Virus record (IMG/VR): IMGVR_UViG_3300016643_000322
Span: 1-50,326 of that record
DNA: 50,326 nt
Source: a virus
Lineage: Duplodnaviria > Caudoviricetes
Strand: one strand, 5' to 3'
Below the pieces are notes generated by a model, which searched no databases, was not told the DNA's origin, and was given only the letters and a program-made list of their open reading frames with translations. The number at the start of each line of letters is the position of its first letter. The stretch's first letter is position 1. A program made the position numbers and the translations under genes. Positions 1-27,505 of this stretch are shown here, piece by piece.

Positions 1-1113
1 GTGAGCTACACGGCACAGATCCGCATCAAGCGCGACGGAGTGCAAGTCTACCAAGAGAGCCAGACCTTCGCCCGAAAACAGGCCGCCCAGGCGTGGGCAC
101 GCAAGCGCGGCTCGGAGCTGGATGAACCTGGTGCGATCGAGCGCGCAAACCGAAAGGGCGCCACGCTCAAAGAAATGACTGATCGCTACCTGGTCGAAGT
201 GGAGAAAGCCAAGCCGCTGGGCAAGACCAAGCGCGCCACACTCAATGCGATTGGCGAAACTTACCTGGGCAAGTTGACCGATACGGATATCAACACCCAG
301 TGCCTGATCGATTATGCACTTTGGCGGATGAGCGGGGAGGGCGGTGGCGTTCAGCCCCAAACCGCTGGCAATGACCTGGCGCACCTCGGTGCGGTGCTGG
401 CAATTGCCAAAGACGCATGGGGCTACCAGGTCGATCCGCTCGCCATGGGCGGTGCGCGGCGTGTATTACGCAAGCTCGGCTACAACCTGAAAAGCCGTGA
501 GCGTGACCGCCGACCGACATTGGATGAGCTGGGACGGGTGCTGACGCACTACCAGGCCATGCAGGAGAGGCGCCCGACCGTCATAAATATGCTGAAGGTC
601 GTGGGCTTCGCCCTGTTCTCCACGCGCCGGCTCGATGAAATAACCCGAATTCGCTGGGCAGACGTCGACGAGGCCGGCCAGCGGGTGCTGGTGCGCGACA
701 TGAAAAACCCAGGGCAGAAGATCGGCAACGATGTTTGGTGTTACCTGCCGGACGAGGCATGGCACATCCTCCTGACGATGCCGAAGGCCGGCGAAGACAT
801 CTTCCCCTACAGCCCTGAGTCGATCTCCACGTCCTGGACGAAAGCCTGCAAGTTTTTGACCATCGCGGATCTGCACTTCCACGACCTCCGGCATGAAGGT
901 GTCAGCCGCCTGTTCGAAATGGACTGGGATATTCCGCGTGTGGCGAGCGTTTCCGGCCACAGGGATTGGAATTCAATGAGGCGTTACACCCACCTTCGCG
1001 GTCGGGGCGACCGCTATGTGGGCTGGGAGTGGCACGAAAAGATTCTGAGGGCGCCCGTCCAACTGGGCGCCGCATCGCAGAAGTGGCTCAAACGGCGTGT
1101 TTTATCCCGTTGA
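1..1113 (+). CDS. int: Tyrosine recombinase/integrase (Rci-like, dusA-associated type); true start probably just upstream of window
   Basis: Catalytic motifs STRRLDEI, FHDLRHE, SGHRDW, RRYTHL; RDMKNPGQKIGND motif resembles that of the integrase at 38385. Confidence 0.93.
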   Translation: MSYTAQIRIKRDGVQVYQESQTFARKQAAQAWARKRGSELDEPGAIERANRKGATLKEMTDRYLVEVEKAKPLGKTKRATLNAIGETYLGKLTDTDINTQCLIDYALWRMSGEGGGVQPQTAGNDLAHLGAVLAIAKDAWGYQVDPLAMGGARRVLRKLGYNLKSRERDRRPTLDELGRVLTHYQAMQERRPTVINMLKVVGFALFSTRRLDEITRIRWADVDEAGQRVLVRDMKNPGQKIGNDVWCYLPDEAWHILLTMPKAGEDIFPYSPESISTSWTKACKFLTIADLHFHDLRHEGVSRLFEMDWDIPRVASVSGHRDWNSMRRYTHLRGRGDRYVGWEWHEKILRAPVQLGAASQKWLKRRVLSR

Positions 1114-1363
1114 GCTGGTTGTGCTCTTTAACCGCGGCTGCGCGCTGTAGGTCCAGGTACGCGGCGAGGTCGGTGAGGTGGATGCCCTTGGCCGACTTCT
1201 GGCTCGGCTCCAGGCGGGTGATGGGCAACTTGATCTGACCGCTCATCACCTTGCGTTGGAACATGTCCGGCGTCAGATGCGTGAAGTAATCCCGGCAAAC
1301 CAGCTCCAACGAGATGACCGCCTGGCCGTCGTACTGGGCCATCAGGATAAAGGCTGTGTTCAT
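1088..1363 (-). CDS. PrtN (pyocin activator)-family DNA-binding protein, possible excisionase
   Basis: MNTAFILMAQYDGQAVISLELVCRDYFTHL...IHLTDLAAYLD matches the PrtN-like pattern; convergent with int. Confidence 0.75.
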   Translation of the reverse strand: MNTAFILMAQYDGQAVISLELVCRDYFTHLTPDMFQRKVMSGQIKLPITRLEPSQKSAKGIHLTDLAAYLDLQRAAAVKEHNQLNGIKHAV

Positions 1364-1365
1364 AT

Positions 1366-1662
1366 CTAAACTCCCGGACGGCCTTTGAAGGCAAGCCAAA
1401 TGTAGTGGCGACCTTTGGCTGTGATCTTGATCTTGCTGGTCTGCTTGTTCCAAGTGATCAGGCGCAACTCGTCGAGGATCGTTGTCAGCGTGTGGCCCTG
1501 GTGCCAACCAGCCAGTGCCTTGATACAGCCTTGGGCAAGTAGGCCACGGAAGTCGGTGTGGCCGAAGTTGGTACCCTGGAATGCGCCCAGCATCACCTCG
1601 TCGGACACCAGGTCGGTGATGACCCTTACGGCCGGGTCGCTTCGGTAGCATTTATGAGTCAT
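1366..1662 (-). CDS. Phage hypothetical protein
   Basis: ORF tightly packed in early operon. Confidence 0.6.
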   Translation of the reverse strand: MTHKCYRSDPAVRVITDLVSDEVMLGAFQGTNFGHTDFRGLLAQGCIKALAGWHQGHTLTTILDELRLITWNKQTSKIKITAKGRHYIWLAFKGRPGV

Positions 1663-1996
1663 AGCCCTCACCCTCAGCCGGGTTGAGGGAGTCGATGCGA
1701 TCCCAAATTTTTTTACCTACCGCATCGCAGCTTTCGCGATTTGGACCCAGCCAAGTGCGCCATACCTCCAATAGCTCTTCCGATGCTACCAGGCGCTGCT
1801 GCAGAGTGTCGGTAAGCTCAATCCTTCGATCAAGTGCGCGCTCTGCGAAGTACAGCTTTTCAACGAGGGTCGACTCGCGTGCCAGGGAGGCGTCAAAGTC
1901 TTCGGCGAGAACTACGACTGGCTGGAACACAGCTTTGCTCTCACCTTCAACACCAGGGATGAAACCTTTCAACTTCCAGCGCTTTACTTCGTTCAT
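1652..1996 (-). CDS. Phage hypothetical protein (coiled-coil centre)
   Basis: ORF with purine-rich RBS, overlaps next gene. Confidence 0.6.
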   Translation of the reverse strand: MNEVKRWKLKGFIPGVEGESKAVFQPVVVLAEDFDASLARESTLVEKLYFAERALDRRIELTDTLQQRLVASEELLEVWRTWLGPNRESCDAVGKKIWDRIDSLNPAEGEGYDS

Positions 1997-2006
1997 AAAG
2001 CCCCCT

Positions 2007-2258
2007 CTACATTCGAAACGATTGATGAATGAACGTCGGCTGTGCCTTATGTTCTGCGGGTTTCGCCATGTCGCCCTGGACCTCGCAAACGAACCGATGC
2101 CGCTTCCGGTTGGGTGCCGTCAGTGCCTCGGTCAAACCTGGCACGGCGTTACTGCACTCCTCGTAAGCGTGAGGGCCGCTCCAGCTGTCAGCCTTCACCA
2201 CCTGGCAATCTGTGTGGGTCGCATCCGCACACAGGTACAGAAGCAGGAGTACGGTCAT
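2007..2258 (-). CDS. Phage hypothetical protein, hydrophobic N-terminus, four Cys
   Basis: ATGA overlap with upstream ORF. Confidence 0.6.
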   Translation of the reverse strand: MTVLLLLYLCADATHTDCQVVKADSWSGPHAYEECSNAVPGLTEALTAPNRKRHRFVCEVQGDMAKPAEHKAQPTFIHQSFRM

Positions 2259-2572
2259 GACTCGTCTCCCGGAAACCCCGGAAAGTCATCGTTGGCGTCA
2301 AGTTCGGCGTAGGCGAACAGCCTCCAATGGATACCGCGACGAAGGTAATGGCCGAGCATCCAGTGGATAACGGCGGCTTGCTCATCTTCACTACGCTCTC
2401 CAATACAGTGCCCTTGCTGTCGAAGCAGTTGGGCTGTATCGGCTAATTTGGTGTGAGGAATACCAAGGATGTAGCGCAGGTCAGCGGTTAGTTCCAATGG
2501 TGCCGATACTGGTGTCACTGGCTCAAAAGAGTGAAAAGTGCGGGTGTCGTTCGAATCTTGATTTGAATGCAT
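2255..2572 (-). CDS. Phage hypothetical protein
   Basis: Strong RBS AAAGGAGAAGCACC-ATG. Confidence 0.7.
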   Translation of the reverse strand: MHSNQDSNDTRTFHSFEPVTPVSAPLELTADLRYILGIPHTKLADTAQLLRQQGHCIGERSEDEQAAVIHWMLGHYLRRGIHWRLFAYAELDANDDFPGFPGDES

Positions 2573-2625
2573 GGTGCTTCTCCTTTCAGGCAGTGGGGGA
2601 GTTGCAGCTCCCCGTGTCCTGCCTG
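2569..2625 (-). repeat. Hairpin(GCTGCAAC)-RBS module, copy 3
   Basis: Sense strand CAGGCAG..GGGGAG-CTGCAA-CTCCCC..CTGCCTG-AAAGGAGAAGCACCATGC. Confidence 0.85.
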
Positions 2626-2634
2626 TGTTGGGTA

Positions 2635-2865
2635 TCAGTGCGCGTATCGACGCGGTTTGTTTTGTCTGGCGGCCTCACGCTCGGCCATGAAAGCCGCCCA
2701 CTCCGCCGTTTTGGTCTGCTGACGGATACGGCTACAGGCCTGGTGTTTGCGGGTGTAGCGGGCATTGCCGCAGATATCGCAACGACTGGGCAGATCAAGC
2801 CGATGGCTTGCCATGGTTGGGCGCCCGCGTTCAGGGCTGGCGTGCTCAGGCATTTGCCACCTCAA
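2635..2865 (-). CDS. Small Cys/His putative zinc-binding phage protein (start uncertain)
   Basis: CDIC...HQAC motif; operon packing. Confidence 0.6.
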   Translation of the reverse strand: MRWQMPEHASPERGRPTMASHRLDLPSRCDICGNARYTRKHQACSRIRQQTKTAEWAAFMAEREAARQNKPRRYAH

Positions 2866-3454
2866 TCGCCTTCAGCTTTGCAAGGCGTGCGGTCTCGTAC
2901 TCGCTGGCCAGGATCTCAACTGCGCCGTCAATCCATCCGCTTGATGGTTGGCCAGCTGCTACTTGGGAGTCGTGTTCGGCTTTGTTGATCTGGAATCCCA
3001 GGTGGAAATAAGCGGTGCCATCGAGTTCAAACTTGATGCCGCCACACAACCACAGGTTGCCGCTATTCACGCCGAGTTGGTCCCAGTACTCGGTACTGCT
3101 CAAGCGTGCAGGGCAATGCTCGTTCCACAATGCGACAAGGCGTTGATGTTCCGCCCGGATGGCAGCTCGTTCGTCTTTCGATATGCCTTTTCCAGGCTTG
3201 GCAGCAGTGCGCAGTGTCCGATATCCATGGTTATCAGGACGGCACCAGTGAACATCCAGCTCGGCACCGCCGCTGAGTTTCACGCCTCCTGCAAAGTGAG
3301 AGTCGACATCACGCATTGGTGCGACCTTGCCGCCGAAGTGCACTCCCAGCGCGGTCAGTAACGCGCTGAAAGCATCCTTCATGACGTAAAAGCTCCGAAC
3401 AATTTCGACGGTTTCAGGCGCGCTGGACTTATAAAAGTAGTCAGCCATGATCAC
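2846..3454 (-). CDS. Phage hypothetical protein
   Basis: 202-aa ORF, ATGA overlap with upstream gene. Confidence 0.7.
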   Translation of the reverse strand: MIMADYFYKSSAPETVEIVRSFYVMKDAFSALLTALGVHFGGKVAPMRDVDSHFAGGVKLSGGAELDVHWCRPDNHGYRTLRTAAKPGKGISKDERAAIRAEHQRLVALWNEHCPARLSSTEYWDQLGVNSGNLWLCGGIKFELDGTAYFHLGFQINKAEHDSQVAAGQPSSGWIDGAVEILASEYETARLAKLKAIEVANA

Positions 3455-3714
3455 TCCCCTCCCATAAGCATGCGCGTCAGCGCATTGGGCTGGTCCGCGG
3501 GCGTCAATTTACTGAGCGGCTGTGTAGTGGTTCGGCCATTTGCACTGCGCAATGTCGCTATATCGCCAGTGATTGCCTCGATTACGGCATTGCGAGCGCT
3601 GAAACGGTAGCTACGGCCACCACCACTGATAGCGACGTAACTGACCTCGTCTCCGACAGCAAGCGGGGTTGTGGTAGCCTCTGCGATGCCGCCTTGGGGT
3701 TGATTCACTTGCAT
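3451..3714 (-). CDS. Phage hypothetical protein (possible KOW/SH3-like beta barrel)
   Basis: Start MQVNQ after repeated RBS; LAVGDEVSY pattern. Confidence 0.65.
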   Translation of the reverse strand: MQVNQPQGGIAEATTTPLAVGDEVSYVAISGGGRSYRFSARNAVIEAITGDIATLRSANGRTTTQPLSKLTPADQPNALTRMLMGGE

Positions 3715-3770
3715 GGTGCTTCTCCTTTGGGTGGTCGGTGTCGAGGGGTTGCAGCCCCTCGGCACCACCT
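3711..3770 (-). repeat. Hairpin(GCTGCAAC)-RBS module, copy 2
   Basis: Sense GGTGCCGAGGGG-CTGCAA-CCCCTCGACACC-GACCACCCAAAGGAGAAGCACCATGC. Confidence 0.85.
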
Positions 3771-3772
3771 TC

Positions 3773-4084
3773 TTACTGGCTTTCGCCAGTTGTTTTTTGC
3801 TTGCGCACCAGGTGCACAAGCACATTTTCAAGTTCGGCAACCTCTTCGGTTTCTGTCTGCCACAGCAGGACGGCGACGATTTGTTCGGGGCTGCACTCCA
3901 GCACCAGAATTTCAAAATCGGTTGCCGCGCTAACTTCCAGAATTTTGACCAGGTCGTCAGGCGCATAGGCCTCGGCGTGAATGATCTTTGAGCTCTCCCC
4001 AAACCACTCCCTCAGCTCTTCCAGATGTCTGTGACGGTTCGTTGCGCCGTTTTGGCCGCCGCTTGCGATGACTTGTACGTGCAT
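3773..4084 (-). CDS. Phage hypothetical protein (degenerate P-loop-like N-terminus)
   Basis: Start MHVQVIASGGQNGAT after repeated RBS. Confidence 0.65.
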   Translation of the reverse strand: MHVQVIASGGQNGATNRHRHLEELREWFGESSKIIHAEAYAPDDLVKILEVSAATDFEILVLECSPEQIVAVLLWQTETEEVAELENVLVHLVRKQKTTGESQ

Positions 4085-4128
4085 GGTGCTTCTCCTTTGG
4101 GTGGTGTCAGACGTTGCAGCGTCTGGCA
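4081..4128 (-). repeat. Hairpin(GCTGCAAC)-RBS module, copy 1
   Basis: Sense TGCCAGACG-CTGCAA-CGTCTGACA-CCACCCAAAGGAGAAGCACCATGC. Confidence 0.85.
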
Positions 4129-4146
4129 GGTATTGCCGTTGATGAA

Positions 4147-6960
4147 TCAGGCCTGGAAGTGCCAGCACTTCACGATGGGTTGTTTCGTGACGACGGCGTT
4201 GGTCTTGCTGGCCTGGTGAGCCCGTACCGCGCTGTCGGTCGCCTTGTTGACGTCGAGCAGCTTCCGCGAGCGGGAGTCCTTCAGGCGCTCGCGCAGCTCG
4301 CTGACGTCGGCGATTTTTTGTCGGTTTTCTGCCGCGCATTTCACGAAGTCGTTGAGGTTTATGGCGATGACGTGGTCTTTCTTGCTGTGGTTGACCACCG
4401 GGCCATCGGCGTCCAGGCCTTCCAGGTATTCGTAAACTTCCCAGAATTCAGCCACCACCGGATGGTCGGAGCTGATCGAGGCTTGGCGCTCAATTGCCAT
4501 GCGGATGATCTGCGAGCGGGTGTGCTCGACCTGTGCATTGGTGAGCGGCACCACCATGCACAGGCAGTCCAGCAGGGTGAGCATTTGGGCGTGGTTCTTG
4601 TTGATTCGCTCCACCCGGATGTAGCCCCGCAGCTTGTTGCCGCAATGGCTACATTCGCCGTGCTCGTCTTTGAATAGGGTGTCGCAGGCAAAACAATGGG
4701 AATGCAGGTTGCGCAACTTCGCTTCGTAGCCCGCAACCCGCTGGCCGAACAGTTCCATCACCTCCAGTTCTTTACGCACGGCCTGCAGCACAAAGTTGCT
4801 GAGTGTCGAACCTTCTAGCGCGTTGAGCCGATCTGCCGCCGCACGGCTTTCAGCGGTGACGTTGGGTCGCACGAAGTGCAGTTTGACGATGCGGGTCATG
4901 ATCGCCTCTGAAGCCACTACAGGGGCGTTCTGGCTGATGGCGATGGTGCCGCGAAACGGCGGTTCGTAGGTTTCGTTACCTGCGGTTTTCACACCCTTGG
5001 TCGCCAGGGTGCCGCCGCCGTAGTAATCCTTGAGTTCGTCCCATTCGAAGGTTTTGGCATGGGCTTTGTCGTCGCCGCTACGGTCCGATTCCAGTAGCAC
5101 GATGGGCATCCCGGAGACCTGGCCCATCAAGCGGCTGCGGCCGGCCTTGGTGGATTTGGACGGGTCAAACCCTTCGTATCCGTCGCGCCCCGCGAGTTTC
5201 CATAGCAGCGTGAGCAACGTGGTCTTGCCGGCGCCGGCCTCGCCAGTGGCCTCAAGGAAAGGAAACGACTGGTACCGGCCGCGGATCTGCTCGGCGAACA
5301 GCGAGCCAAACCAGAAGGTCAACGCCACGATGCCCTGGGCACCAAAGCACTGCCACAGAAGCCCAAGCCACTGGTCATCGTATTTTTTGCCATCCTTTTC
5401 AAGATCGATCTTCACACCCTTTTGCAGAGTCTTGAGTTTCAACTTGCCCATCTCAAAAAACTCTTCCTCGTTGATGTGGATCACCTGGCCTTCACGGATG
5501 GCGACGTCGTTGAACACGTAGCAGTGGTATTCCTTGCTGTAGCCCACGTAGTCGATGGTCTGAACCGTCTTGATGCCGAAAAGCTGGTCTTTCATGAGTT
5601 TGTCCAATTGCTGACCACTGCCGGTGAACACGGCTCCGGCACCCATGCCGAGAAGTCTTTTTTTGAATTCGCTCGCAGCGGCGACCTGTCCGCCCGTGAA
5701 GGTGTTTTTCACTGAGCCGCCGTCGTGCGGGAAGTCGACGCGGAAGAAGTACCAGGACTCGTCGGTAATCTCGTTGCGCTGGAAATAGAGGGCTTTGGGG
5801 TAGCAGTTGGCGATCTCGACGACGCAGCCGGCGACGTTCAGTGCCTTCTCCCGCAGCTGCTTTTCATTGAGTGTTTGGGCTTCGTGGCCATCGCTCTTTT
5901 CGAGGGCCTGCTTGGCGTTGTTGTATTTCGCCAGGTCCAACTTCCACCAGTACAGGCGGGAGTCGAAACAGAAGTGGAATTCCTCCCGTTCACGCCACTG
6001 GTACATGAGCAAAGCCTTGTCGCTGGCACTTTCTGCGATCAGCAGGGCGCCCTGGTGGCGGGCTTCTTTCAAGTCACTTTCGATGCGATCAGCGCGGGCT
6101 TTTTCGTCGTCGATAAACGCCCAGCGTTGATGCAGATCGTTCCAGTCAACCTTGCGGGCGTCAGGCTGTGACAGCTGAGCAGCCTCGCAGGTAAAACCGA
6201 GTTCGCGGGCACGGTTGACCCACATACGGGTGTACTTGTGAGCGCCTGGCTCGTTATCCAGAGCCCAAACCAGCTTCGGGGTTTTACCGCCGCGAGCGGT
6301 GATCAGGGCCTTGAGCGATTCCTCTGGAAAGGCGTTGGAGGACAGCGCCGCAACCGCAGAGATACCGTTTTGAATGAGCGCTATGGCGTCGAAGATGCCT
6401 TCAACGATCCACAGCTCATTTACTTCCAGCAGATCCACGCACGGCGGGCACCACCAGTGCCCCCTGTAGCTCTTGAGGGGTTGGAAGCGGGCCTTCTTCT
6501 TACCGAACCGTGACGGTTGGTCAATCAAGCGCTCCCAGTACCCGCCGTGTTCCAGAGGGAAGCGCACGGTGGCAGAGCCAATATTCAGGTCGCGATCAAA
6601 GTAGCTTTCCTGGGTGTACCAGCCCTCTATCAGCTCAACGCGGAAACCTCGGGAAAATGTTAGGTAGGCCTTTGCGCTGGCGGCAGGCTCGTCTCGGGTG
6701 GCCGGTGCACGCTTGCTCCAATCGTCGAACAGGTCCGGGTAAAGCTCTTTGGTGGGAGCCATGTACCGGCAATTTTTCTCGCGGCCACAGCGGATGAACC
6801 AGGGTTCATCGTGGCGCGAAAACAAACGTTTCTGATTGCACTGCGGGCAGGTGCCCTTACGCATGTAATGCGTGCCTTTCATGTGCTGAAGGCCGTAATC
6901 AGATTCCAGGCGCTGAAGAACATCAGCGCGAATCTTGTTTTCCATGGGCTTGCGAATCAC
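4147..6960 (-). CDS. Zinc finger-toprim-P-loop primase/helicase replication protein
   Basis: CPQC..RCGREKNC zinc finger, WIVEGIFDAIAL/ALDNE toprim, Walker A GEAGAGKTT, Walker B-like IVLLESD. Confidence 0.88.
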   Translation of the reverse strand: MIRKPMENKIRADVLQRLESDYGLQHMKGTHYMRKGTCPQCNQKRLFSRHDEPWFIRCGREKNCRYMAPTKELYPDLFDDWSKRAPATRDEPAASAKAYLTFSRGFRVELIEGWYTQESYFDRDLNIGSATVRFPLEHGGYWERLIDQPSRFGKKKARFQPLKSYRGHWWCPPCVDLLEVNELWIVEGIFDAIALIQNGISAVAALSSNAFPEESLKALITARGGKTPKLVWALDNEPGAHKYTRMWVNRARELGFTCEAAQLSQPDARKVDWNDLHQRWAFIDDEKARADRIESDLKEARHQGALLIAESASDKALLMYQWREREEFHFCFDSRLYWWKLDLAKYNNAKQALEKSDGHEAQTLNEKQLREKALNVAGCVVEIANCYPKALYFQRNEITDESWYFFRVDFPHDGGSVKNTFTGGQVAAASEFKKRLLGMGAGAVFTGSGQQLDKLMKDQLFGIKTVQTIDYVGYSKEYHCYVFNDVAIREGQVIHINEEEFFEMGKLKLKTLQKGVKIDLEKDGKKYDDQWLGLLWQCFGAQGIVALTFWFGSLFAEQIRGRYQSFPFLEATGEAGAGKTTLLTLLWKLAGRDGYEGFDPSKSTKAGRSRLMGQVSGMPIVLLESDRSGDDKAHAKTFEWDELKDYYGGGTLATKGVKTAGNETYEPPFRGTIAISQNAPVVASEAIMTRIVKLHFVRPNVTAESRAAADRLNALEGSTLSNFVLQAVRKELEVMELFGQRVAGYEAKLRNLHSHCFACDTLFKDEHGECSHCGNKLRGYIRVERINKNHAQMLTLLDCLCMVVPLTNAQVEHTRSQIIRMAIERQASISSDHPVVAEFWEVYEYLEGLDADGPVVNHSKKDHVIAINLNDFVKCAAENRQKIADVSELRERLKDSRSRKLLDVNKATDSAVRAHQASKTNAVVTKQPIVKCWHFQA

Positions 6961-7272: not shown

Positions 7273-7647
7273 TTAGTGCGGGAGGTTGCGAGTCAGCAGC
7301 AGGCGTGTGGGGAGCAAGCGTGCTGAAACGGGATGTCGCTGTTGGGTGCAGTTGTCGAGCAGCAAGATCACCGGGCGGAAAGGGCCACTGGTGGGATGGA
7401 TACCCAACCAGGCCACACGCTTGCAGGTCATGCTTTCGAACTCGGCCAGCGCCAGTTCAGCGATGCGCTGCACCTGGTGCGTGGGCACTTCAAGCGACTG
7501 GGTCAAGTACCGTGTGCAGTTCTCTAAAAGCTGGCTGTCGCCGGCAAGATGCTCGCAACGGTGGCGGTACAGATAGGCCACGGCCGCTTGTTGCATCGCG
7601 GCACGGTAATCGCTTGCGGGGTTGGTAGTCAGGGCGATGGTGTTCAT
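7273..7647 (-). CDS. Phage hypothetical protein
   Basis: ATGA overlap with ogr. Confidence 0.65.
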   Translation of the reverse strand: MNTIALTTNPASDYRAAMQQAAVAYLYRHRCEHLAGDSQLLENCTRYLTQSLEVPTHQVQRIAELALAEFESMTCKRVAWLGIHPTSGPFRPVILLLDNCTQQRHPVSARLLPTRLLLTRNLPH

Positions 7648-7937
7648 ACAGGTGCGGCCTCCGTTTCCAGTTGATCCAACAGATCAGGTTGCTCATTGGC
7701 GGTTTTCATTGCCTGGCGACGAATGACCACATCTGCAACTGGCAGCTTTACAGCGGGGTTGGGCATGCCGCTGGGGCTTAGTTCGTGGGTCATTTGAAAT
7801 TCAGCACGCACCGCCCAGCCGCAGGCTTCGTTGGTGCATTGCATGTAGGTGATACGCAAAAAAATATGTTGGCCTTCGCTGGTGCGGATGCGCATGCGTC
7901 CGTGGCAGTGAGGGCAGACGAGCTTGTAGGTGCTCAA
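7644..7937 (-). CDS. ogr: Ogr/Delta-family late transcription activator
   Basis: CPHC..IRTS..Y.QCTNEACG four-Cys zinc finger. Confidence 0.88.
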   Translation of the reverse strand: MSTYKLVCPHCHGRMRIRTSEGQHIFLRITYMQCTNEACGWAVRAEFQMTHELSPSGMPNPAVKLPVADVVIRRQAMKTANEQPDLLDQLETEAAPV

Positions 7938-8407
7938 TGTTTTGGCCCCCGACTGTGCAGCAGAATCGTTGCCAGGACCTCGGAGTGACGAGCCGCCATG
8001 TAATGGCTGTGAGCGCGTAAAATCGCCTCGGCTTCGTCCCGCTCGATGACGCCGTCGTCCAGTGCCTTCGCAATGATCTGGTCGACCACACCGCGCTTGG
8101 CTGCTGCACGCACTGAACGGTTGTAGAGGTCCACGTTGTCCAGTGTTTCAGGCTTGGCGAGGGGGACAAACATGCCGCCGTACATCGCCGCGATGTATTC
8201 CGGCAGGTAGGTGGTGCCCATGTCCTGCTCTAACAGATGGATCTGTTCATCGCTCAGGGGCCGACTGCCGGCGTTTTCGTAGATGTGGTTATCGAACTTC
8301 TTGAGTTCGTATCCAAGGCGGGCTGCAGCGCATTCGCGGCCACCTTCGTAGTCGTTGATCACTGCGCTCATTACCTGGCGCTTGGTCGCTAGAACTGGGC
8401 GTTTCAT
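7934..8407 (-). CDS. CII/YmfL-like phage regulatory protein
   Basis: GGRECAAARLG N-terminal HTH, ALDDGVIERDE C-terminal motif; second gene of early operon. Confidence 0.7.
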   Translation of the reverse strand: MKRPVLATKRQVMSAVINDYEGGRECAAARLGYELKKFDNHIYENAGSRPLSDEQIHLLEQDMGTTYLPEYIAAMYGGMFVPLAKPETLDNVDLYNRSVRAAAKRGVVDQIIAKALDDGVIERDEAEAILRAHSHYMAARHSEVLATILLHSRGPKH

Positions 8408-26785: not shown

Positions 26786-27505
26786 TCAGTTAGCTGCAGG
26801 AGCAGCGTATTTTTTGAGGAGACGCTCGACGCGCTCCAAATCCTTCTTGCCACCGCAGTTGGTGTTCAGCTCGATGGCGCGGGACAGATATTTTTTCGAC
26901 GACTCCAGGTGACACAGGGCGGCCACCTTGCTTTCCGACGTGTCGTCGTCGGAAACCATGTCCGCGAAAGCCTTGCCTAGGGCCAGATGCAGCTTGGCTT
27001 TAGCCTGGTCGGGCATGTCTTCTTCACCCGCGATTTGCTCAGTGCGCAGCAGCAGCTTCACGTCGAACGTGCCACCGGCCTTCTGCGCCTTCAGGGCGAC
27101 TTCGGCAATTTCTTCGGCAACGATGGTGCCGGTCGTGCGTTCGAAGCGATCAGGCATGAGCAATGCGTACTGGATGACGTACTCGGCAATGTCCAGGGCG
27201 CCGGCAAAGTCGCCGGCATCCATCCGCCAAACCATCAAAGTGGTCAGCACCTGGTCCTGCGCGCCTTTTCCGCCTGCCAGAACGCCTTCCACGTATGGGA
27301 TGTATTCGGGGAGCAGTTGCTTTTTCAGCTCTGCTTTGCCTTCGGTGGACTGGACCTGTTTCAGGCGCAAGTAGTCCTGCTGAAGCTTCGCCAGGTGCAG
27401 TTCGTAAATAGTGGAACCTTCCATGGTCATGGCTGGGCCGGCCACAGCGGCCGCTGCAACGGCTGCTGTGACGCGCTGGAAGTGACGACGGCAAGGATTG
27501 GTCAT
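26786..27505 (-). CDS. M: Terminase small (endonuclease) subunit M
   Basis: MTNPCRRH..LKQVQS..VWRMDAGDF..DMPDQAKAKL. Confidence 0.92.
   Translation of the reverse strand: MTNPCRRHFQRVTAAVAAAAVAGPAMTMEGSTIYELHLAKLQQDYLRLKQVQSTEGKAELKKQLLPEYIPYVEGVLAGGKGAQDQVLTTLMVWRMDAGDFAGALDIAEYVIQYALLMPDRFERTTGTIVAEEIAEVALKAQKAGGTFDVKLLLRTEQIAGEEDMPDQAKAKLHLALGKAFADMVSDDDTSESKVAALCHLESSKKYLSRAIELNTNCGGKKDLERVERLLKKYAAPAAN

Follow-up and report, generated by a model that had tools for sequence, protein, structure and literature searches.

What keeps the loop of an intergenic hairpin constant while its stem varies freely, and why is such a hairpin placed in front of several genes of the same operon? These questions are raised by the early operon of a 50,326-bp provirus in the IMG/VR database, a relative of Pseudomonas phage phiCTX (P2-like, Peduoviridae); the entire record was analyzed and is referred to here as the window. 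Downstream of its primase gene there are three modules, each consisting of a hairpin and a shared ribosome-binding site (RBS) and start codon. Such hairpin-plus-RBS modules are real, and they recur widely, with hundreds of phiCTX-like Pseudomonas prophages having them. They are not all equivalent, however. To judge from their opposite-strand signals they are of two kinds, and the one per genome that carries these signals (module 2 in the window) probably contains the gene for a small antisense RNA.

An earlier note on this DNA described the minus-strand gaps after the primase gene as having the same layout, and this description is confirmed. Each gap contains a hairpin with the loop G-CTGCAA-C, followed by a C/A-rich spacer and then by AAAGGAGAAGCACCATGCA. 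The distances from stop codon to ATG are 62, 58 and 62 nucleotides (nt), and the three gaps are the non-overlapping gene junctions after the primase gene. The extent of the shared initiation block was also given correctly, with AAAGGAGAAGCACCATGCA (19 nt) common to all three modules and ACCACCCAAAGGAGAAGCACCATGCA (26 nt) common to modules 1 and 2. The parts of the modules are located as follows.

4105..4128, minus strand: hairpin of module 1, with a 9-bp stem TGCCAGACG/CGTCTGACA (4128-4120 and 4113-4105) that includes one C.A mismatch, and the loop CTGCAA (4119-4114).
4080..4105, minus strand: initiation block of module 1, 26 nt identical to that of module 2, with the ATG at 4084-4082 of a gene for a 103-residue protein.
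3737..3766, no strand assigned: hairpin of module 2, with a 12-bp stem GGTGCCGAGGGG/CCCCTCGACACC (3766-3755 and 3748-3737) that includes one C.A mismatch.
3710..3735, minus strand: initiation block of module 2, ACCACCCAAAGGAGAAGCACCATGCA, with the ATG at 3714-3712 of a gene for an 87-residue protein; proposed cis target of the antisense RNA.
2587..2625, minus strand: hairpin of module 3, with the inner stem GGGGAG/CTCCCC (2613-2608 and 2601-2596), the loop at 2607-2602, and the outer helix CAGGCAG/CTGCCTG.
2568..2586, minus strand: initiation block of module 3, the same 19 nt as in modules 1 and 2, with the ATG at 2572-2570 of a gene for a 105-residue protein.

Read on the minus strand, the loop of the module 2 hairpin is CTGCAA; read on the plus strand, it is TTGCAG. 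The energies of folding correspond to z scores of -0.11 for module 1, which is unremarkable, -2.7 for module 2, and -3.29 for module 3, the last two being low. On the sense strand C/A-rich sequence, rather than a U-tract, lies behind every hairpin, in agreement with the earlier view that these hairpins are not terminators of the operon. Scans of the window find no minus-strand terminator within the operon and no sense-strand promoter-like site at the modules. Weak terminator-like sites are present on the plus strand at 2641-2664, just beyond module 3, and at 4298-4323, about 170 nt beyond module 1; both are inside the 3' ends of minus-strand genes.

A 17-mer of the block is found, with up to 3 mismatches, at 3 sites in the 50,326 nt, compared to an expectation of 0.13, and none of 100 shuffled sequences reaches 3. 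The motif GCTGCAAC by itself is not rare (6 sites versus 3.4 expected, with 11 of 100 shuffles reaching 6), so that it is loop and block taken together that form the signal. One more hairpin with a CTGCAA loop, of 11 bp, is located at 27443-27470 (plus strand) inside a minus-strand open reading frame (ORF) at 26786-27505. No RBS block lies behind it, and it is probably due to chance. Strong complements of the block within the window are confined to the antisense strands of the modules themselves (-43.8 kcal/mol, the next best being -22.3 kcal/mol), and there is no other antisense copy within the window at up to 3 mismatches.

An exact 17-mer scan of IMG/VR finds at least 134 stretches of viral contigs, many of them with 2-4 copies. 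Among the matches listed, GCTGCAAC is positioned upstream of the block in 121 of 180 unique contexts, on many unrelated stems. For a comparison that does not depend on the block, two sets of primase relatives were gathered without regard to the RBS, one of 80 loci with primases 84-99% identical to that of the window (the window clade), and the other of 78 loci with primases about 62-65% identical (the second clade). A profile-based scan for more distant primase relatives returned the same close clade. With a canonical hairpin defined by a C[T/G]GCAA loop, a stem of at least 4 bp, and a distance of at most 55 nt upstream of the RBS block, it is present at 87 of the 94 unique block sites in the window clade and at 75 of 91 in the second. 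All five whole virus records that were compared have 3-4 copies of the block each, on one strand and within one stretch of 1-2 kb, except for a single-mismatch match in one of them (G004). In phiCTX itself there are two modules, both with the loop CGGCAA and the variant block AAAGGAGAGACACCATGCAA; the GAGACACC block of phiCTX is present in both. The stretch of the block from the Shine-Dalgarno (SD) sequence to position +5 does not differ between clades with proteins of only 44-65% identity, and 47 of 51 distinct gene starts have CAN as the second codon. The spacer sometimes repeats the 3' half of the loop motif, with CGGCAAC in up to four tandem copies in one relative (L107:511-561, minus strand) and AACTGCAACCCC in phiCTX (L138:4705-4736, plus strand); another example is L203:7129-7165 (plus strand). 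If the antisense RNA proposed below exists, these repeats could be extra pairing sites or products of slippage.

The stems do covary beneath the fixed loop, as the earlier note had proposed, which indicates a selected nucleic-acid structure. Among 138 sites picked on loop and RBS, with pairing not a criterion, 76.7% of the cells of an 8-bp helix are paired, versus 55.1% after shuffling (none of 500 shuffles as high) and 30-43% when the partner strand is slid. The covariation score is 0.491, versus 0.164 for shuffled and at most 0.149 for slid sequences, and changes on both sides are seen at all 8 pairs. In a search of both strands against Rfam 15, the check suggested together with that proposal, no family attains its gathering score. 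The highest scores are those of Scr6925 (23.7 bits against a gathering score of 50, plus strand), Mu-gpT-DE on module 1 (18.9 against 49), and the terminal hairpin of Collinsella-1 (16.5 against 35).

The structure so selected need not belong to the sense transcript. The earlier picture was of three modules that are alike; their common layout stands, but module 2 has in addition promoter-like, terminator and wobble-pair signals on the opposite strand. Hairpins with stems of at least 10 bp (long stems) occur in one module per genome. An A-rich tract (at least 5 A in 8 nt) lies 5' of the sense stem in 66 of 92 unique long stems, versus 8 of 108 short ones and 1 of 30 of intermediate length, and its presence beside long stems is independent of the upstream gene. 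On the antisense strand this arrangement reads as a GC-rich hairpin followed by a U-tract, so that hairpins of the module 2 type have the form of an intrinsic terminator in that direction. Such a terminator is called on the antisense strand at the module hairpin in two relatives (L009 and L020), where 13 pairs are followed by AATTTTTTTC or TCTTTTTTCC, and the scan finds no other terminator-like site near their modules.

The second signal is a promoter-like hexamer. An antisense TAnnnT is found at sense positions +28 to +42 of the ORF in 109 of 127 unique long modules, in 108 of them exactly at +34 to +39. Of the short modules, 9 of 135 have it, and a control window gives 5 of 127. A TGn often stands before the hexamer, and a TGn in front of the -10 hexamer is the consensus of extended -10 promoters. 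The hexamer persists as TAGCCT, TATGCT or TAAGCT beneath differing amino acids. The coding sequence that it overlaps shows equal conservation at all three codon positions over codons 1-20 (1.04, 1.10 and 1.16 bits at positions 1, 2 and 3 of codons 11-20), and third positions have 0.34-0.42 bits from codon 31 onward. The long hairpin and the extended -10 element are in the same module in 69 of the 75 window-clade loci that have modules. The element is present in 72 of 166 modules of this clade, just 3 of which are short-stemmed.

The third signal is in the stem itself. A G.U pair of an RNA appears as an A.C mismatch when the other strand is read, and the two strands can be told apart in this way. 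With stems detected in a strand-neutral manner in 97 unique modules that have the hexamer, 89 wobble cells are of the antisense type, in which an A.C on the sense strand corresponds to a G.U on the antisense strand, and 1 is of the sense type, next to 1072 Watson-Crick cells. The C.A mismatch on the sense strand of module 2 is one of these antisense wobbles, a G.U pair on the plus strand. At this position 30 diverse sequences have, on the antisense strand, U.G in 14 cases, C-G in 13 and U-A in 3. The test is ambiguous when all modules are pooled and is informative only once they are divided into the two kinds. Together, the opposite-strand signals of module 2 favor an antisense RNA over a protein-binding site on the mRNA. 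An intergenic hairpin may thus belong to the opposite strand, and the sequence by itself can show this, through asymmetric wobbles and through A/U tracts at the flanks.

The features of the putative RNA gene, with the ends of the RNA placed from motifs, are located as follows.

3672..3680, plus strand: extended -10-like element TGgTAGCCT, within codons 12-15 of the module 2 gene.
3686..3779, plus strand: predicted antisense small RNA of about 90 nt, with its start near 3686-3688 and its end near 3770-3779, possibly extending to about 3800.
3775..3800, plus strand: second terminator-like hairpin ACTGGCTTTCGCCAGT, with TGTTTTTTGC behind it, where the antisense RNA may alternatively end in this genome.
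3451..3714, minus strand: gene for the 87-residue protein (PHROG 3728), the first ~16 codons of which overlap the predicted antisense RNA and its promoter.

The segment 3686-3779 (plus strand) folds into two stem-loops with an energy of -48.3 kcal/mol and a z score of -5.5, and none of 200 shuffled sequences does as well. The 5' stem-loop (about 3688-3735) has the apical loop UGCAU, the complement of the AUGCA start region. The remainder of the predicted RNA comprises a segment complementary to the RBS, the terminator hairpin (3737-3766) with the loop UUGCAG, and a U-rich tail. Many pairs in the first stem are G.U and are mismatches on the sense strand. Both stem-loops are retained in an RNAalifold analysis of 30 diverse sequences, with compensatory changes at 11 of 21 pairs. 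The second terminator-like hairpin is in the 3' end of the gene for the 103-residue protein, and relatives have a weaker T-run there.

With a covariance model derived from these 30 sequences, each genome has one top match, on the antisense strand. The scores are 98.1 bits for the window, 89.6 for phiCTX, and 87.9, 86.6 and 81.0 for three other virus records (G003, G001 and G004), all of which are in or near the training set. In the Mu-like phage JBD30, which is outside the training set, the score is 59.4 bits (E about 8e-12), while the other two modules of the window reach 39.7 and 30.9 bits. JBD30 has one module only, with the same 12-bp stem and the unrelated loop TGGCCG. This difference in the loop is expected if the loop is fixed only when trans targets must match it. 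Among the matches listed, 19 records of Mu-like Pseudomonas phages match just positions 3666-3772 of the window, with 73.7% identity. The antisense unit also behaves as a mosaic block in the relatives of the window, with homology breakpoints clustered at 3640-3679 (23) and 3760-3779 (29). In one relative (L210), the overlapped gene is cut to a remnant of 25 codons, but the hairpin, the RBS block and the -10 element are kept.

Different proteins share the first ~16 codons, MQ[VA]NQP..., of the module 2 gene. They are encoded at 3451-3714 and 2635-2853 of the window, by phiCTX orf40 (L138:5374-5625), and by JBD30 gp9 (L139:4563-5198). The phiCTX orf40 runs on into a CCHC motif, for which the window has a separate gene of 72 codons, and JBD30 gp9 has 211 residues. 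The common 5' end of these genes coincides with the predicted antisense RNA and its promoter.

The loop type is matched among the modules of a genome. Of 59 multi-module contigs, 52 have CTGCAA loops only, 7 have CGGCAA loops only, and none is mixed, whereas 0 of 10,000 permutations have as few mixed contigs. There are 62 pure loci and 1 mixed locus in the second clade. The mixed locus, L482 (6242 and 7240, plus strand), is the sole mixed genome seen, and it has CTGCAA in the short module after the primase gene and CGGCAA in the long module. Identical stems are found with either loop type, and the loop type has switched at least 3 times on the primase tree. Next, the long module was compared with the short ones of the same genome, for 110 genomes having one long and at least one short module (140 long-short pairs). 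The loops are identical in 137 of the 140 pairs. The 19-nt block (-14 to +5) is identical in 105 pairs and differs at 1 position in 23 and at 2 positions in 11; the variant block GAAAGGAGAGAACC is common to both modules in 13 of 15 pairs. An antisense RNA that matches the modules would explain the fixed loop on unrelated stems, the matched loops within genomes, and the genome-specific variants of the RBS block.

In the model proposed here, one module per genome would be the gene for a small, cis-encoded antisense RNA. Transcription would start at the extended -10-like promoter inside the first codons of the downstream gene, proceed for about 90 nt across the start codon and SD sequence, and end at the long GC-rich hairpin and its U-tract. 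In cis, the initiation region of its own gene would be complementary to the RNA throughout. In trans, it would be complementary in two separate patches to the other modules of the genome, so that the module 1 and module 3 hairpins would be the kissing sites of trans targets. In the first patch, the terminator loop UUGCAG would face the target loops CUGCAA, whatever their stems. In the second, the 5' part of the RNA would face the shared 19-26 nt RBS/start block, with the apical UGCAU opposite AUGCA. Complementarity of both the loop and the initiation region, as expected for kissing loops, is apparent at the sequence level. Loop-loop kissing would nucleate the complex and pairing would spread over the RBS, blocking the translation of all the tagged accessory genes and perhaps triggering the decay of their mRNAs as well. 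We consider the complete model, with one antisense RNA controlling all tagged early genes, to be evenly balanced between right and wrong.

Several observations weigh against this model. The transcript is deduced from sequence motifs, and its trans action, sign and timing are likewise deductions. Among the sequencing runs listed, none recorded as RNA contains the stretch, and the four runs compared with it consist of DNA contigs. The -10 hexamer is weak (TAGCCT has 3 of the 6 consensus bases), a conserved -35 element is not seen, and a standard consensus promoter scan calls nothing at the -10-like element in the window, L009 or L020. The strict form TGnTAnnnT is present in only 30 of 73 second-clade loci, although TAnnnT is common there. 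The A-rich tract of the window itself is poor, with 4 A in 8, and the second hairpin with its T-run, located behind it, may be required as the terminator. Wobbles in short modules are strand-ambiguous (50 sense versus 57 antisense). With respect to the matching within genomes, L482 mixes the loop types, the loops differ in 3 of the 140 pairs, and 7 genomes have GGAGCAGCACC in the long module but GGAGAAGCACC in the short modules. A protein, or recombination between modules, could likewise keep loop and block identical. Finally, many of the sequences counted here are related by descent, and the counts therefore overstate the number of independent events.

A protein could maintain the same features. 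In this alternative, which appears unlikely, an RNA-binding protein of the phage or host (a translational repressor or activator, or a processing nuclease) binds the loop and the RBS/start block, and the antisense features of module 2 merely halt stray antisense transcription. It would account for a loop that is constant on variable stems and concordant within genomes, for a block conserved to +5 across unrelated genes with a CAN second codon, and for the identity of this block between the two primase clades. On the other hand, no candidate for the protein follows the loop type among the upstream proteins, the primase and the distal gene families. A CGGCAA-type genome has CII-like and PHROG-3967 proteins that are 96-97% identical to those of the window. 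Near-identical primases go with either loop, those of L166 (G type) and L167 (U type) being adjacent on the tree, and there is no universal distal gene among the relatives. The first genes after the primase encode acidic proteins (isoelectric points of 4.4-5.3), and the protein would leave both the -10-like element at +34 and the restriction to one such module per genome unexplained.

Other partners for the loop were considered and rejected. A host-specific factor that sets the loop type is not indicated, as both types are found in non-aeruginosa Pseudomonas, in a loose scan with mostly chance hits. If the loop (UGCA) formed a pseudoknot with AUGCA of its own mRNA, at most 4 bp would result, and CGGCAA genomes mostly retain AUGCA. 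No conserved second hairpin with a complementary loop, which could serve as a kissing partner, was found in the sense transcript. The modules show no resemblance, by eye, to Pseudomonas CRISPR repeats (Racr mimicry).

The modules may instead be plain expression cassettes and recombination linkers that act without any trans factor, in which an insulating and stabilizing hairpin is joined to a CA-rich spacer and strong SD sequence that make translation independent of context, and the shared segments serve as crossover sequences. We regard this as improbable, even though gene content between modules does vary among relatives, as the earlier note had asked to be checked: there are 59 gene orders after the primase gene among 78 close relatives. 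The module 3 stem (GGGGAG/CTCCCC) stays with the upstream CCHC gene and is followed by 7 gene families, and the module 2 hairpin stays with the downstream gene and is preceded by 5 different families. Hybrid modules have a crossover in or beside the loop (L014, L016 and L018). A tandem duplication in L166 (6811-6960, plus strand) comprises the last ~20 nt of the primase gene, the stop codon and the first hairpin (CCCGGACG CGGCAA CGTCCGGG, twice) and looks like a recombination scar at a module; the primase of L166 is nearly identical to those of CTGCAA-type relatives. Homology breakpoints fall in modules in 84 of 341 cases, and as modules make up 3.4% of the 7 kb compared, this is an enrichment of about 7-fold. 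However, breakpoints are just as common at overlapping gene boundaries that have no module (36 at 3440-3459, 33 at 2240-2259). Modules are therefore some of the junctions, but swapping does not seem to depend on them. The earlier idea of a cassette junction thus holds to the extent that modules border swappable small early genes, but a role as the special swap points is not supported. An insulator needs no particular hexaloop, nor concerted changes between U and G in loops on the same stems. Moreover, conservation of the block is 100% even with an attached gene of only about 44% identity, a pattern that speaks for selection and against recent exchange.

The third alternative, also raised in the earlier note, is a nut/boxB-like site for processive antitermination that is read by an N-like protein. 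Hexaloop boxB sites exist (phage 21), and such a site would look like the present hairpins, whose loops are lineage-specific and which lie in a phage early operon. Each genome, however, has 3-5 sites, every one of them distal in the operon and coupled to an RBS, and just 1 of about 170 canonical hairpins (in L013) has no RBS. The upstream flanks are variable gene ends with no conserved boxA-like sequence, the operon has no minus-strand terminator-like sites downstream that would have to be overridden, and no small arginine-rich N-like gene is recognized. The antitermination idea is accordingly very improbable. Least probable of all is a hairpin acting in DNA, for instance an origin element beside the primase gene or a signal for primase or single-strand initiation: the modules do lie just downstream of a P4-alpha-like primase gene and their stems could pair in single-stranded DNA, but the hairpins go closely with RBS blocks, lie within a single stretch of 1-2 kb and always on one strand (5 of 5 whole records), and occur with nearly identical primases in either loop type.

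The early operon in which the modules are located is on the minus strand. It has a promoter-like site at 8715-8687, and the next terminator-like site on this strand is only at 99-84. The principal genes around the modules are the following.

7934-8407, minus strand: CII-like gene.
7644-7937, minus strand: Ogr/Delta zinc-finger gene.
4147..6960, minus strand: DNA primase of 937 residues (Toprim, PHROG 1139), the final conserved early gene, with the variable accessory region after it.
1-1113, plus strand: integrase gene, convergent to the early operon.

Two small genes of PHROG families of unknown function are located between the Ogr/Delta and primase genes. The small genes after the primase encode, in order, proteins of 103, 87, 200, 72 (CCHC motif), 105, 83 and 114 residues and are followed by a PrtN/excisionase-like ORF. 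The 103-residue protein behind module 1 belongs to PHROG 7795, and the 105-residue protein behind module 3 has no family match in Pfam and PHROG searches, which give no function for the small accessory proteins. No hydrophobic segment is obvious by eye in the three module-linked proteins (103, 87 and 105 residues). The region 1088-4146 (minus strand) and its equivalents in relatives L147-L226 are hypervariable, and most of the genes are without family annotation. The gene directly after the primase usually encodes an acidic protein of 100-121 residues. In the PrtN/excisionase-like ORF (1088-1651, minus strand), the domain spans only residues 97-181 of 187. Its N-terminal half is of low complexity and looks out of frame, and the true start is therefore probably further downstream.

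If the antisense model is correct, the RNA would represent an undescribed small-RNA family of temperate Pseudomonas phages, found in phiCTX-like prophages and as a single unit in Mu-like phages such as JBD30. Its design would be unusual, with one antisense RNA and several targets in the same operon that each have their own kissing hairpin. Hypervariable accessory early genes would be freely swappable and yet jointly regulated, and the module would offer synthetic biology a compact, natural RNA control tag. We suggest, tentatively, that the module is a portable control tag, such that a gene recombined in behind it joins the regulon of one antisense RNA; that CUGCAA and CGGCAA are specificity classes separating the regulons of co-infecting phages, similar to the incompatibility groups of plasmids; and that the RNA unit has moved between P2-like and Mu-like Pseudomonas phages. 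This extension of the model is doubtful.

A description of the element was not found in open-access papers and preprints on phiCTX stem-loops, Mu-gpT-DE, antisense RNA of temperate Pseudomonas phages, or antisense RNA of D3112, DMS3 and JBD30. Searches of the open-access literature for the motif GCTGCAAC/GCUGCAAC gave primer matches only. The available part of a 2025 review of phage small RNAs (PMC12197685) gives no such RNA for temperate Pseudomonas phages, and a paper on the Hfq interactome mentions phiCTX only as an integration site.

Among known elements, the nut boxB sites of lambda, P22 and phage 21 are similar in that they are early-operon hairpins with lineage-specific loops. The modules differ in lacking a boxA and in being distal and tied to an RBS, and no terminators that would have to be overridden were found. 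The Rfam family Mu-gpT-DE (RF03012), the best minus-strand match on module 1, likewise lies downstream of a phage gene and has AGGAGA and AUG behind a hairpin and a CA-rich spacer. In module 1, however, the loop is another one, the outer helix by which the family pairs with the SD sequence does not form, and the score is 18.9 versus 49 bits. As swap junctions, the modules have their closest published concept in the PeSLs of T4-type phages. These are cassettes of an early promoter and a terminator stem-loop that flank small, non-essential genes of hypervariable regions and act as recombination points, according to the accessible parts of PMC2839356 and PMC4122927. Both are short conserved stem-loop cassettes beside swappable small genes, but the modules have an RBS/start block and a fixed loop in place of a sense-strand promoter and U-tract.

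The closest known systems are P22 sar and RNA II of par(pAD1). The sar promoter is located inside the start of the regulated gene, and the RNA predicted here would similarly start inside the regulated gene and run back across the intercistronic RBS. In the immI region of P22, sar is a small antisense RNA that lies over this RBS and represses translation by pairing (as outlined in the available part of PMC12197685). It has a single target, whereas in the present case 2-4 more genes of the same operon have a matching RBS block and a loop-matched hairpin. There is also no sequence similarity to sar, and the host and phage family are different. In par(pAD1), RNA II and RNA I kiss at the complementary loops of their intrinsic terminators, and then pair through repeats that cover the SD sequence and start codon (according to the accessible text of PMC7472228). 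The same two-step geometry, a kiss at the terminator loop and then pairing of the initiation region, is proposed here. On the other hand, par(pAD1) has one shared bidirectional terminator and one toxin mRNA, while the trans targets of the predicted RNA would have hairpins of their own that are not terminators and have unrelated stems. The loops are without a YUNR motif, and no toxin-like hydrophobic peptide is apparent, the 87-residue protein showing no clear hydrophobic stretch by eye. Antisense control by kissing loops is known. What is new is the family, its occurrence in P2-like and Mu-like Pseudomonas phages, and the proposed design with multiple hairpin-tagged targets within one operon.

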